A stretch of 64,000 nucleotides of DNA, taken from IMG/VR virus record IMGVR_UViG_3300031673_000001, one strand, 5' to 3'. The DNA is from a virus (Duplodnaviria > Caudoviricetes). The notes beneath the pieces were generated by a model that searched no databases, was not told the origin of the DNA, and was given only the letters and a program-made list of their open reading frames with translations. A program made the position numbers and the translations under genes. Below are positions 11,230-54,586 of this stretch, one piece after another (the first letter of the stretch is position 1; each line of letters starts with the position of its first letter).

Positions 11230-14200
11230 ATGAAAATAAAATTTCTCGATATTAATAAGTTTATAAGAGGATTAAAACCCGTTACAACTGCTGAATTTAG
11301 AACTAGAGCTGGAGAATTTCATCCGGATGGTTTATTTAGTGAAAAGATATTTGGAGTTGAAAATTCTAGGGAAAGATCTCAAACTTATTCATATATAGAA
11401 CTCCATACGCCAGTAATCCATCCCGCAGCTTTTATAATCTTTAAAAGAATTGATAAAAAACTAATTGATTTCTTTTCAACTGAAAAACTTTTCACAATTC
11501 AAAATGATGGATCATATTTTGAATCTGAAAAGGGGGTAACAGGAATCAAGGAGTTTATTAAGGCGTTTCTTAATTTAAACTTTAAAGGGGGCACACCTGC
11601 TCGAGAAGCTTTAATTAAAGTTCTAAAACAAGGTGGTAAAGATGGGACATTATTCATTGATAAAATTCCAGTTATACCACCCGAACTTAGACCTGCATAC
11701 GAAGATGAGAATAAACGATGGATTATTGATGAACTTAATACTGTTTATACTGGTCTAATAAGAAAAGCAACTCAAATAAAAGGTGTTGGAAAATCTGGAG
11801 CATTATTTGATCTTCTAAATTATAATTTACAGTTAGCTGTTAATTCGCATGATGCATATATACGCACAAAAATTTCTAAAAAGCATGGAATAATTAGAGA
11901 TAAAATGTTGGGAAAGAGAGTGGATTTTTCAGCTAGAGCTGTTATTACTCCTGGTCCAAAACTAAAAATTAATGATGTGGGTTTGCCTGTTAGAATAGGA
12001 GTTATTTTATTTGAACCCTTCATTATACATTACATGCTTTATTCTAAAAGATATCCTAGATATGCAGAATTAGAAAATGAAATTAGAAATTATACTGATT
12101 CAGAACTATCAGTTGATACAATAAAAAGAGTTATGAAAGGAATTAAAGATGATGATAAAATTCCAGATCTCTTATATGAACTATTATTTGAAGCGTGTGA
12201 AATTGTAATGAAAGGCAGGGTAGTAATATTAAAACGAGATCCTGCACTACATGATGGTTCATATAGAGCATTTAATCCAGTATTAACAAGAGGATCAACA
12301 ATAGAAATATCAACAATGCAGGTTGGTCCATTTAATGCTGATTTTGATGGAGATCAAATGGCGGTTTATCATCCTCTTTCTCAACAAGCACAAAAAGAAG
12401 CTAGAGAAAGAATGATGCGAGGAGTTGGAAGTAAAAGCTCAAATGCAACCATGTTTGAAATTTCAAAGGAGATGAGTTTAGGAGTTTACTTGATGACCAA
12501 AGATACTAAACTAAAAACCTCTCCAATAGCAGTAACACTTCAAGATTTAGAAAAAGCAAATAATCCTTTTATTCCTGTTAGATTTAGAGGACATAATACA
12601 ACAATGGGAAGAGCTATAATAAATTCTGCTTTTCCTTCTGATTTTAAATGGATTGATGGTCAAGTCACAAAGAAAATTATCAATAATTTAATTCCTGAAA
12701 TTATTGATAAGTATGGAGATGATACTGCAGCTAATATTTTTACAGATATAAAAAATGTGGCATTTAAATTTGCAACCATCGGAGCTTCATCAATAACTCT
12801 AGATATGCTTGATATTCCTGATAGTATATTAAAATTGAAAGAAAAACTTACAAGTTCAACACCAGAAGAAGCACAAAAATTATTGAAAGAAATGGAAATA
12901 ATATTAAAGAAACATTTAAAAGATACAGGTTTGTATGAATTAGTTGAATCTGGTGCTGGAAAAGGATGGGATCAACCCATGCAGATTCTTGTTGCTAAGG
13001 GTATTATTGCTGATACAAGTGGTAAACTGCTTGAACCAATTAAAGGATCATTTTCAGATGGATTGACAAATATAGAATATTTTAATGCAGCTGGTGGTGC
13101 TAGAAAAGGAATGGCAGATAGAGCTTTAAATACTGCTACAACTGGATATTTTACAAGACAACTTGTCTATGTATTGTCTCCAATAGAAGCACATCCTACT
13201 CTAAAAGATTGTAAAACAAAACGAACAGTTCAATTAAGATTGACCAATGATCTTATTAAAAGAATGACTGGACGATATATTATCAAAGGTAGTAATGTAA
13301 TTCCATTTAAAAAATCAGACTATAATATAGGAGACGTTGTTAATTTAAGAACTTCTATTTATTGTGAATCTTATAAATTATGCCATACCTGTTATGGAGA
13401 TTTATTAAAACGACACAAATCTCCTTATGTTGGAGTGCTAACAGGAGCATCAATTGGAGAACGTGGCACCCAGTTAATTATGAGAACATTTCACACTGGT
13501 GGTGCTGTTAATATAGTTGTTCGAGATATTTTATCTGATATTATTGATAACGATCCATTGATTGAAGCATCTAAACAAAAACTTGGTCAATATTTAGAAC
13601 AACTAGATGATAAATTAATAGCTAAAAAACAGTGTAATATAAAAATTGATTTATCAACATATGAAGTGCAGAAATCTTATTTAATTGACGACGATAAAGA
13701 TTATGTTTGGTTTAATCATCTCATATCTCAAATAGAATTTGATGATATAATTTTTAATATATCTCTTGATTATCCAGTCCATTTATTTAAACAAAAATTT
13801 CAAAAAATTGGAAAAGAAACATTGACCTTTGATTATTCTGTTGGAGATACAATGATGGAAACACCTTTACAAACAACAGAAATTAAAGAAGAGGTAAATT
13901 ATATTAACAGATTGATTGGAGGTCGAGTAGTTTATAAAGATCCAAGTCATTTGTTACTAAAGGTTTTGAAAGTATATGGTGGTTCGGTATCCGATTTAGA
14001 TTTATGCTATTTTGAAGTATTATGTTCACAGGTATTAAGAGATAGAAAAAATGAATCATTGCCTGCAAGAATGGGAAAGACTTGGGATCCCGTAATGATG
14101 AATATTAAAAGCACAGTATTTACTACAGGTTTTATTCAAGGATTAGCTTTTGAAAATATAAATAAAGCTATTGATACAGGATTGGTTTCTGAACAGGATC

Positions 14201-14253
14201 TGCCTCCATCAATATTAGAGAAATTGGTAACAGGAGAGGAATTAAGGAAATGA
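11230..14253 (+). CDS. rpoC: DNA-directed RNA polymerase beta' subunit (set 1)
   Basis: PDGLFSEKIFG, LGKRVDFSARAVITP, RDPALH, FNADFDGDQM, RKGMADRALNTATTGY, TQLIMRTFHTGG. Confidence 0.95.
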   Translation: MKIKFLDINKFIRGLKPVTTAEFRTRAGEFHPDGLFSEKIFGVENSRERSQTYSYIELHTPVIHPAAFIIFKRIDKKLIDFFSTEKLFTIQNDGSYFESEKGVTGIKEFIKAFLNLNFKGGTPAREALIKVLKQGGKDGTLFIDKIPVIPPELRPAYEDENKRWIIDELNTVYTGLIRKATQIKGVGKSGALFDLLNYNLQLAVNSHDAYIRTKISKKHGIIRDKMLGKRVDFSARAVITPGPKLKINDVGLPVRIGVILFEPFIIHYMLYSKRYPRYAELENEIRNYTDSELSVDTIKRVMKGIKDDDKIPDLLYELLFEACEIVMKGRVVILKRDPALHDGSYRAFNPVLTRGSTIEISTMQVGPFNADFDGDQMAVYHPLSQQAQKEARERMMRGVGSKSSNATMFEISKEMSLGVYLMTKDTKLKTSPIAVTLQDLEKANNPFIPVRFRGHNTTMGRAIINSAFPSDFKWIDGQVTKKIINNLIPEIIDKYGDDTAANIFTDIKNVAFKFATIGASSITLDMLDIPDSILKLKEKLTSSTPEEAQKLLKEMEIILKKHLKDTGLYELVESGAGKGWDQPMQILVAKGIIADTSGKLLEPIKGSFSDGLTNIEYFNAAGGARKGMADRALNTATTGYFTRQLVYVLSPIEAHPTLKDCKTKRTVQLRLTNDLIKRMTGRYIIKGSNVIPFKKSDYNIGDVVNLRTSIYCESYKLCHTCYGDLLKRHKSPYVGVLTGASIGERGTQLIMRTFHTGGAVNIVVRDILSDIIDNDPLIEASKQKLGQYLEQLDDKLIAKKQCNIKIDLSTYEVQKSYLIDDDKDYVWFNHLISQIEFDDIIFNISLDYPVHLFKQKFQKIGKETLTFDYSVGDTMMETPLQTTEIKEEVNYINRLIGGRVVYKDPSHLLLKVLKVYGGSVSDLDLCYFEVLCSQVLRDRKNESLPARMGKTWDPVMMNIKSTVFTTGFIQGLAFENINKAIDTGLVSEQDLPPSILEKLVTGEELRK
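14174..14253 (+). repeat. 3' end of rpoC-1, repeated at 14760-14839
   Basis: about 80 nt direct repeat with 7 substitutions, 6 silent. Confidence 0.9.
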
Positions 14254-54500: not shown

Positions 54501-54586
54501 ATCCAATGCCAGAGTCTGTTAAATTATTAAACTCTTATCTAACAGTGTTGGGGGTAGATTACAATGACAACGTACAATCACAATGA
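51545..54586 (+). CDS. rpoB: DNA-directed RNA polymerase beta subunit (set 2)
   Basis: INGRRK, ICPVDTPD..NCG, GHNYEDG, GDKIANRHGNKG, RMNIGQ, GGQRCGEME. Confidence 0.95.
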   Translation: MKLINPVFKIQDPNNNIFTIRKKDQDQLLTVTRQILQPAIDLGFTLNELTLKDSRFSSGELSKTVKQTLAIKLQKGTSNIDLSLQIPKLVDNNYIVINGRRKIPLFQLFDIPIVTRGENIKLRTNVATLMIVKDRDPPFVKVSFLGKKIPLSILLYAYYGIDEMIKNKEFDLINVKIEDLDPENLMDLLIKDCKLIYNDLQTNMTQDDFILEIGRVYSKYNSKSKGHDIVYALDLIPQVDIFTRSFLTTGSLLGELILTIKTGDVDDILFTNKRVRCFEYMIFSKLSKIIFDLCFSNRSTKQPKFNTNSTQILSECNVSDIVQFDFSINPIEELTKLSRISLLGPGGFKRENIPKHLRDICPTMFGRICPVDTPDRDNCGVLQNLIPNVKLDDQLRFSDDICEHQPISIPVSFTPFCEHDDQTRLQMAASQMRQAIMLKEFDQPMIKSGCEGLYTDHTQFIKRAKKNGEVVHIDEKYLMVVYEDRIVDIFDISFRNIYVEHMDTMKLYVNVGDKFKTGDILAESNFIQNGDITFGKNLLTGVMIYYGHNYEDGIIISDRLVKTNTFTSVHFKDLSFTIPPNKVLLTLSNDEYKPLPDPLELIKIGNPYAILKTLSSEDLYSVWIEPIRLEAEKTYIIPSVKIYANEWNQDIPEYKEWVEKTIKKQKEKQTGLREMIKEKLPRDLAVKFIREKDLELFSFIGKYKNKKEKINGIYVEMSGIHLRSIQVGDKIANRHGNKGVISRILPHEMMPQLEDGRHLDICLNPLGIISRMNIGQLFELHLSMSLYDLQKTISKMLVDEKSQDEIKQYLINYIKIIDKTKEGWYQKQFIEQLPDIIDSKFIESLTLIQPPFESCHIEDLEKALKYTETNFAYDIYDPIPRKNLLKPIAVGYMYFLRMVHIAEEKLASRGIGSYAKRTLQPLGGRKNKGGQRCGEMETACIIGHDCPKNLFEFLTTKSDCIDLKNDYIRSYINTGRSTNEQKIELNPMPESVKLLNSYLTVLGVDYNDNVQSQ

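Follow-up and report, generated by a model that had tools for sequence, protein, structure and literature searches.

Two undivided multisubunit RNA polymerases in an uncultured phage of the mReC lineage, candidate counterparts of the virion and non-virion enzymes of phiKZ-type phages

Can the two RNA polymerases (RNAPs) of phages of the phiKZ/AR9 type exist in an undivided form? In these phages (Chimalliviridae, Takahashivirus, and phiR1-37), each genome encodes two paralogous sets of beta and beta' subunits, the virion (vRNAP) and the non-virion (nvRNAP) enzymes, which are comprised of 4-5 polypeptides. The question is raised by a 64,000-nucleotide stretch (hereafter, the window) of the IMG/VR virus record IMGVR_UViG_3300031673_000001 (Duplodnaviria; Caudoviricetes), which also carries two beta/beta' sets, but with beta and beta' as single chains. 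The window corresponds to the minus strand of bases 8392-72391 in a viral contig of 83,345 bp, for which CheckV estimates 27% completeness; hence, the source genome should be near 300 kb. An earlier reading of the window, made from the letters and a list of open reading frames (ORFs) and called the sequence-only reading below, had reported rpoC-rpoB twice, with unsplit subunits, intact NADFDGD, and an order reversed relative to bacteria, and had proposed a pair of virion and non-virion enzymes. Pfam matches, motif positions, and the ORF layout agree with the former part; the latter is the subject of most of what follows.

Set a is formed by beta' at 11230..14253 (1007 aa, Pfam Rpb1 domains 1, 2, 3, and 5) and beta at 15278..19342 (1354 aa, Rpb2 domains 3, 6, and 7). 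Set b is formed by beta' at 48684..51365 (893 aa, Rpb1 domains 1-5) and beta at 51545..54586 (1013 aa, Rpb2 domains 3, 6, and 7). Each of the four subunits is a single ORF on the plus strand, with Pfam E-values between 1e-5 and 1e-52. The NADFDGD motif occupies residues 369-375 of beta' in set a and 388-394 in set b, the trigger-loop TFHTGG and the bridge-helix residues show no variation across a and b sequences, and GDK..R[H/Y]GNKG with its active-site lysines is kept in beta of both sets. In both sets beta' is followed by beta, opposite to the bacterial rpoB-rpoC order. The presence of two complete sets with intact catalytic motifs in the window is thereby confirmed.

The same arrangement is found in relatives (designated below by G and L numbers). 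In IMG/VR, set-b beta' has relatives on at least 297 contigs, the best 80 of which are 54-87% identical to it, and set-a beta' on at least 31 contigs, with 43-84% identity; all locus counts given below cover these best 80 of at least 297 relatives for set b and 31 loci for set a. Five long relatives (149, 203, 223, 248, and 277 kb) have exactly two beta' and two beta genes each, with the same sizes and a spacing of ∼35 kb. The longest of them, of 277,131 bp, carries direct terminal repeats, and its completeness is rated at 100%. Both sets occur together on 16 contigs, namely 14 common to the match lists of a and b, G004, and the contig of the window itself.

The window belongs to the mReC lineage (Weinheimer and Aylward, 2020). 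Its RNAP subunits share 50-60% identity with those of contigs listed in the mReC supplement, which includes WOR52_10000459 (G002; metagenome 3300001782, 277,131 bp) and Ga0180432_10000070 (G005; metagenome 3300017989, 149,482 bp). The definition of mReC asks for beta and beta' of at least 800 aa with NADxDGD, and the four unsplit ORFs of 893-1354 aa agree with it, as judged by Pfam models in place of the COG0085/0086 hidden Markov models (HMMs) of that paper. It also asks for an RNAP that groups with mReC sequences, separately from those of cells and giant viruses; in our trees, which were restricted to bacteria and phage sets, both sets form a deep branch separated from 6-14 bacterial sequences with 100/100 support. 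Finally, tailed-phage hallmark genes (terminase, baseplate hub, endolysin) are present on the same contig. The window contig differs from the published members in being a further one, ∼84% identical to its nearest relatives. The suggestion of a possibly distinct lineage in the sequence-only reading thus fails.

The two sets had already been recorded in mReC. Gene names in Supplementary Dataset 2 of the mReC paper bear the suffixes '_a_' and '_b_' on shared contigs, with beta of 1365-1367 aa and beta' of 1002-1005 aa for '_a_' entries, and beta of 1014-1017 aa and beta' of 900-903 aa for '_b_' entries (PMC7481178). These entries correspond exactly to our sets a and b, and the statement in the sequence-only reading that mReC has one set was therefore mistaken. 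The main text treats 'the mReC RNAP' as one marker, does not contain the words 'virion' or 'two copies', and is silent on an extra N-terminal domain, promoters, and splits; phiKZ-type sequences were left out of its trees owing to long-branch problems (PMC7481178). According to a 2020 review, no analysis has placed the mReC enzymes jointly with those of the phiKZ type (PMC7598289), and our full-text literature search turned up no paper discussing two unsplit polymerases in one phage. The sequence-only reading had considered that the two sets might fall within a described group in which two unsplit RNAPs were already recognized: the group is indeed described, but it is not known for two enzymes. 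As an observation, the finding is largely pre-empted, the window being a new mReC member with both sets already in the supplement. What is new is the argument, partly proven and in our judgment somewhat favored, that mReC phages encode two undivided polymerases, one of the virion type and the other of the non-virion type.

In our interpretation, set a is the probable counterpart of vRNAP, and set b of nvRNAP, in phiKZ/AR9-type phages, an assignment that we hold with modest confidence. It is based on the asymmetry of profile scores, a shared accessory fold, weak support in trees, the promoter context, and the behavior of the two sets with respect to splitting.

To compare profiles, we used the genomes of phiKZ, AR9, SPN3US, Madawaska, and RSL2. 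Polymerase pieces were identified from the annotation in AR9 and, in phiKZ, by what we take to be the published gene numbers. The meaning of PHROG families was assigned by scanning the phiKZ and AR9 pieces against PHROGs: phrog_2986 and phrog_2962 represent vRNAP beta'-N and beta'-C, respectively; phrog_2987 and phrog_3015, nvRNAP beta'-N and beta'-C; phrog_3148, phrog_14872, and phrog_38251, vRNAP beta-N; and phrog_2943, nvRNAP beta-N. Among phiKZ-type profiles, beta' of set a has its best match to vRNAP (phrog_2986, 150 bits) and scores 87 bits against nvRNAP (phrog_2987), whereas beta' of set b yields 83 and 114 bits, respectively. Beta of set a matches all three vRNAP families (150 bits for phrog_3148, 102 for phrog_14872, and 36 for phrog_38251) and no nvRNAP family; beta of set b matches only phrog_3148 of vRNAP (97 bits) and likewise no nvRNAP family. 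The reverse comparison, with our own mReC HMMs, is similar. The vRNAP beta'-N of AR9 scores 130 bits against the set-a HMM vs 23 against the set-b HMM, and gp180 of phiKZ 81 vs 19 bits; the vRNAP beta-N of both AR9 and phiKZ is matched by the set-a HMM only, and the nvRNAP beta-N of AR9 by the set-b HMM only. Overall, the profile scores lean toward a correspondence of set a to vRNAP and of set b to nvRNAP.

The shared accessory domain is the strongest single argument for set a being of the vRNAP type. In a profile-profile alignment, the core of set-a beta begins near residue 352, which corresponds to residue 28 in set-b beta, and hence the first ∼350 residues of set-a beta are an extension. 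It is not present in set-b beta, nvRNAP, or bacterial beta, while vRNAP beta-N (e.g., gp178) has a long one. An AlphaFold model of residues 1-220, built with 25 mReC sequences, has a predicted local distance difference test score (pLDDT) of 92 and a predicted template modeling score (pTM) of 0.90, and shows a P-loop-kinase-like alpha/beta domain. Searched against BFVD, this model yields only two viral matches with E < 1e-3, G4KK38 (1393 aa, E 3.5e-6, TM 0.61 on the query) and A0A223LD65 from Bacillus phage PBS1 (921 aa, E 1.9e-4, TM 0.53 on the query); a 370-residue model of the N-terminus yields the same two. The gp178 homologue g099 of Yersinia phage phiR1-37 is also 1393 aa long and is annotated as 'RNA polymerase beta subunit; phage structural protein'. 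PBS1 and AR9 belong to one species, and in AR9 the first exon of vRNAP beta-N is a 932-aa ORF. In the relative L295, the extension is a separate 315-aa ORF, in agreement with the domain boundary. The usual Walker A position of the domain reads YFSENS, which makes binding of nucleoside triphosphates doubtful. A fold search in PDB gave only generic P-loop-kinase or signal recognition particle (SRP)-GTPase-like matches (Z ≤7.5), and no assignment was made from it.

A phylogeny of both sets, which the sequence-only reading had named as a check, was built with bacterial, phiKZ-type, and mReC sequences; it unites a with v in both data sets and b with nv in the concatenated one only, with weak support throughout. 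The beta'-N tree (41 rows, 414 columns, LG+C20 PMSF) places bacteria apart from the phage sets, with (v,a) supported at 69/58. For the concatenated beta'+beta matrix, each piece was aligned to one profile, giving 24 rows and 630 well-filled columns, a procedure that drops most N-terminal columns. Its maximum likelihood (ML) tree, unrooted, is ((a,v),(b,nv),bacteria), with (a,v) at 62/68 and (b,nv) at 72/69. This best-scoring topology is what orthology would predict; two independent duplications would also fit. For phiKZ-type phages themselves, a duplication cannot be told from two acquisitions of vRNAP and nvRNAP (PMC7598289).

The promoter context of the two sets is different. Upstream of the set-a operon, the 182-nt gap 10599-10780 contains a terminator-like hairpin (10697..10716, plus strand) with a 7-bp stem and a T-rich tail, and, after it, a copy of a sharply conserved promoter-like motif that we call M2 (TAGAACAAAATACAAAT, 10731..10750, plus strand), 46 nt upstream of the ORF starting at 10781. 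The M2 consensus is tAGAACAAAwwATAAAt, preceded by a T-run. In the window it is found 30-60 nt before the ORFs at 7915, 10781, 21404, and 60686, the last of which adjoins the terminase gene, and a weaker copy precedes the terminase gene itself. In 11 of 13 lineages, M2 lies at -430 to -570 from the start of set-a beta'. The ATAAAT part of M2 recalls the T4 late promoter TATAAATA. Strict M2 has few sites in G002, whose own set a is without it, and we do not claim M2 as a general late promoter. The second motif, M1, is ATTTAAA-N9-10-TCTATATATATTAATA, with four near-identical copies on the plus strand at 7442, 9098, 21681, and 21849. These are situated in intergenic gaps before small ORFs, before a 485-aa ORF at 9141, or before a non-coding stretch at 21.9 kb. 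M1 may be a promoter class specific to a phage polymerase, distinct from the GAACAAA..ATAAAT motif. A scan for sigma-70 promoters and terminators at 7-26 kb gave 133 sites, compared with 122±11 expected by chance, and was discarded except for the hairpin at 10697.

Neither M1 nor M2 was found within 1.5 kb upstream of set b. Set b is located deep inside an unbroken string of co-oriented genes, starting after the M1 sites near 21.8 kb. The part of this string directly upstream of set b, at 41547-48498, was almost without matches in a PHROG scan, and its genes appear to be co-transcribed with the set-b polymerase genes.

Both sets are accompanied by small ORFs, all on the plus strand. Directly upstream of set-a beta' is a 148-aa ORF (10781..11227), which tblastn locates at the same position in 28 of the 31 set-a loci with 23-74% identity; it has no Pfam or PHROG match. 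An 83-aa ORF (48467..48718), for which no family match was found, lies upstream of set-b beta' and overlaps it, and is at the same position in at least 44 of the 80 set-b loci. Between set-b beta' and beta there is a 59-aa ORF (51362..51541) without a Pfam match, conserved in position in at least 37 of the 80 loci with 34-90% identity. The 148-, 83-, and 59-aa ORFs are candidate extra subunits or specificity factors.

The two sets also differ in their integrity. While 'unsplit' in the sequence-only reading is true of all four subunits in the window, other members of the lineage do not always share this state: none of the 80 set-b loci shows a split, but set a is split in ∼10 of its relatives (L270, L280, L284, L289, L291, L292, L295-L298). 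Beta' of set a is cut near residue 780 in seven contigs, a break that the 782-aa frame of G004 also fits, and three contigs have the cut within the NADFDGD loop or shortly past it (two at residue 372, one at ∼400). An inserted ORF, of 293 or 356 aa, is present at two of these three loop breaks. For beta of set a, one contig has a break near residue 454 and a different one near 300-350. One of the ORFs at set-a breaks carries DUF7487, and in L294 the set-a beta' and beta genes are separated by one for a 652-aa SNF2-type helicase.

In the window itself, the pair and order reported as rpoC-rpoB for set a hold, with the refinement that two extra ORFs separate the subunits. This insertion (14250..15285, plus strand), delimited by translations and by blastn against the relative L084, contains ORFs at 14250-14735 (161 aa) and 14839-15285 (148 aa), flanked by a duplicated 3' end of beta' and 5' start of beta. 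In the remnant between them (14736-14838), 11 codons from the start of beta are fused to ∼24 from the end of beta'. The insertion is not present in the close relatives L084-L087, in which ∼30 nt separate beta' from beta. The 161-aa ORF matches phrog_10766 and phrog_5043, the function of both being listed as unknown in PHROGs. Taken as a whole, the insertion looks like the footprint of mobile (homing-type) genes. The catalytic loop is also a place where ORFs of phiKZ and AR9 end, and the AR9 annotation has joined multi-piece polymerase genes with homing endonuclease genes inside or beside them. Mobile elements have been proposed as the origin of split phiKZ-type genes (PMC7598289), and mReC shows, in set a only, mobile-element traffic of this kind.

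Several results speak against the assignment of set a to the vRNAP type and set b to the nvRNAP type. The beta'-C pieces of vRNAP and nvRNAP alike score higher against the set-b HMM; therefore, the a-to-v signal comes from N-terminal regions only. In BLAST, each of the two sets finds the other as its best match (∼30% identity, ∼330 bits). The beta'-N tree puts nvRNAP with a and v rather than with b, and forcing b and nv together costs 4.2 log-likelihood units (lnL), which the approximately unbiased (AU) test does not reject (p-AU 0.096). In the concatenated tree, (a,v) and (b,nv) have weak support of 62-72%, and forcing a with b or v with nv costs 3.3 lnL each (AU p 0.28 and 0.25, respectively), with neither rejected. 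As the AU tests reject no alternative, phylogeny alone decides nothing. The two structural matches were presumably the phiR1-37 g099 protein and the PBS1 vRNAP beta-N exon, as they were taken by protein size and organism, not by name. Sequence homology of the extensions is not claimed, since hhalign of the extension against vRNAP beta-N gave E-values of 0.05-0.6; lowering mact to 0.1 gave 455 columns, but the default aligned only residues 362-476, within the shared beta core, and the longer alignment was rejected. The putative promoter classes M1 and M2 are motifs only. Some of these points would equally be expected from an mReC-specific duplication with no virion role, an alternative that we consider unlikely, though it deserves to be taken seriously. 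Under it, both enzymes would act after infection, divided by time or promoter class (e.g., middle vs late genes), the host polymerase would transcribe first, as in T4-like phages, and the likeness of set a to vRNAP would be due to convergence or long-branch effects. Besides the mutual similarity of a and b and the unrejected a+b clade, this alternative agrees with the T4-like replication and baseplate-hub genes, and with both enzymes being far nearer to bacterial RNAP (E 1e-95 and 1e-71) than to AR9 nvRNAP (1e-15). Against it stand the N-terminal domain of set-a beta, which matches only two viral models, both presumed vRNAP beta-N, and profile scores that are asymmetric in both directions; in addition, ML topologies join a and v in two data sets, and no sigma-type factor that could redirect the host enzyme was found in four genomes of the lineage.

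Two further alternatives concern the reality of the pair. One of the sets could have decayed into a non-catalytic, structural or regulatory, component, leaving a single working polymerase. We find this very improbable: although set a is more divergent (∼50% identity among relatives vs ∼60% for set b) and tolerates splits and insertions, NADFDGD, the bridge helix, the trigger loop, and the GDK..GNKG lysines of beta are kept in both sets lineage-wide, and both are full length in nearly all long contigs. The other is an assembly chimera or cellular contamination, with one set derived from a bacterium or a co-assembled second phage, as the sequence-only reading had also considered. The window does come from a metagenomic contig, and the relative L147 (DAOVGR010000079.1, 34,718 bp) was binned into the metagenome-assembled genome (MAG) of a 'Thermoplasmatales archaeon'. 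However, the same layout and spacing are retained in the 16 contigs, which come from different samples and include the complete genome with terminal repeats, and a chimera is thus excluded for practical purposes. Moreover, the GC content of the window is uniform (27-34%), nearly all ORFs over its 64 kb are on the plus strand, and both sets fall outside bacteria in the trees. Set-b beta' of L147, 65% identical to that of the window, is the only close match in cellular genomes, and L147 probably represents phage DNA assigned to the wrong bin, not a clue to the host. We also rejected a captured cellular rpoBC operon, given the beta'-then-beta order, the position of both sets outside the bacterial clade, and the best cellular identities of 28-32%.

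Overall, the window is a part of a ∼280-kb genome of an uncultured mReC tailed phage, in a lineage that as a whole encodes two paralogous bacterial-type RNAPs, here with undivided chains and conserved small companion ORFs. Under the assignment of set a to vRNAP and set b to nvRNAP, the set-a enzyme would be made late and packaged into the head, and then ejected with the DNA to transcribe the first genes. The set-b enzyme, encoded among replication genes, would be made after infection and would transcribe later genes, including the set-a operon. Both packaging and timing are inferred here, as is the pairing of each enzyme with its promoters. Of the virion plus non-virion pair proposed in the sequence-only reading, the unsplit pair is thus established, the division into virion and non-virion enzymes is favored by the profiles and the N-terminal fold of set-a beta, and packaging stays at the level of inference.

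The likeness to the phiKZ/AR9 type extends to several further features. Set a shares vRNAP profile similarity and the N-terminal beta domain, while set b leans to nvRNAP; homing-type insertions and splits occur in the polymerase genes; and no sigma70-type factor was found, Sigma70_r2 having no match in four genomes of the lineage, in keeping with phiKZ-type phages. The vRNAP beta'-N gene adjoins beta-N in RSL2 and SPN3US and is two genes away from it in phiKZ, and set-a beta' is likewise located before beta. There are also differences. The positions of set-a splits in relatives (beta' ∼780 and 372; beta ∼300-450) are not those of phiKZ/AR9-type phages, the RNAPs of the window are far less diverged from bacterial RNAP than phiKZ-type enzymes, the replication genes are T4-like, and packaging is a prediction for set a. 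Chimallin and PhuZ were not detected; for chimallin, the query was the phiKZ ORF upstream of gp55, which had no match in G002 or G000 but also missed the homologues in SPN3US and RSL2, leaving this search without power. A comparison of G002 with AR9 yielded ∼30 ORFs with weak BLAST matches (E 1e-5 to 1e-48), while only four were found with phiKZ. The matches to AR9 include the portal, the major head protein, DNA polymerase, and an SF2 helicase located two genes downstream of the nvRNAP beta'-C of AR9. G002 and AR9 may share ancestry beyond the polymerases.

A broader evolutionary interpretation, for and against which we see about equal grounds, is that the phiKZ-type pair has its undivided counterpart in sets a and b of mReC. 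The strategy of one virion and one post-infection polymerase would then predate the cutting of subunits and reach beyond nucleus-forming phages, into a large lineage of environmental phages with a global distribution, and fragmentation would be secondary and driven by mobile elements. Relatives of the window would show this process in progress, in set a only, with one break located exactly at the NADFDGD loop. Split phage enzymes have been proposed to preserve a multi-piece state that existed before the last universal common ancestor (LUCA) (Iyer et al., 2021, PMC7824862); were splitting shown to be secondary, this would contradict that proposal. If the interpretation is true, mReC would also supply much less diverged sequences for rooting phiKZ-type enzymes, and a single-chain, virion-delivered multisubunit polymerase, which should be easier to express and study. 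Host-independent early transcription would be widespread among uncultured sediment and aquatic phages. If, on the other hand, the duplication was specific to mReC, the finding comes down to one more member in a lineage that is already published.

No cultured relative with identity above 30% emerged from protein searches of 50,697 phage records. Among cultured phages, an unsplit beta'-like ORF with 25-28% identity to those of the window is present, e.g., in Rhizobium phage RHph_TM30, Vibrio phage Va2, and Yersinia phages YerA41 and GN1, but with one matching place per record. RHph_TM30 (L090; NC_070966 155259-158642) is a cultured phage with a 208-kb genome, in which a single unsplit beta'-like gene of 1127 aa lies beside DNA polymerase. 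BLAST detected no beta partner in this genome, and RHph_TM30 branches with bacteria, not with mReC, in the beta'-N tree.

Other genes of the window include those for the baseplate hub/tail lysozyme (2903-3865), endolysin (5177-6223), and large terminase (61952-63601), as well as topoisomerase II large and medium subunits, SbcCD-like nuclease, helicase, QueD, NUDIX, and several HNH endonucleases. By topoisomerase II, the SbcCD-like nuclease, and the baseplate-hub genes, the replication and virion genes look T4-like. The complete relative G002 encodes the portal and major head proteins. HNH endonuclease families are matched by four ORFs (1805-2902, 19342-20205, 28217-29494, and 44200-45858), the second of which directly follows set-a beta. 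They fit with heavy homing-endonuclease traffic in this genome.

The tRNA scan of the window gave no tRNA genes. Behind an M1 site, a 629-nt gene-free gap (21862-22490) contains three copies of (A)AGACTTTATGTA[A/G]TTTCAGA and a fourth, diverged copy. The same gap has a partial tRNA-like element at 21923-21975 with a GGTTCGATTCC T-loop, which scores 25 bits against the Rfam tRNA model (threshold 29) and is not reported by ARAGORN. The gap may hold small RNA genes or decayed tRNAs. In addition, the 179-nt intergenic gap 25165-25343 contains a near-perfect inverted repeat, with arms of ∼35 nt (CTCGCCCCTGCTATTACGATAGCTTGTGGAAGAT... / ...ATCTTCCACAAGCTACCGTAATAGCAGGGGCG) that are ∼60 nt apart.

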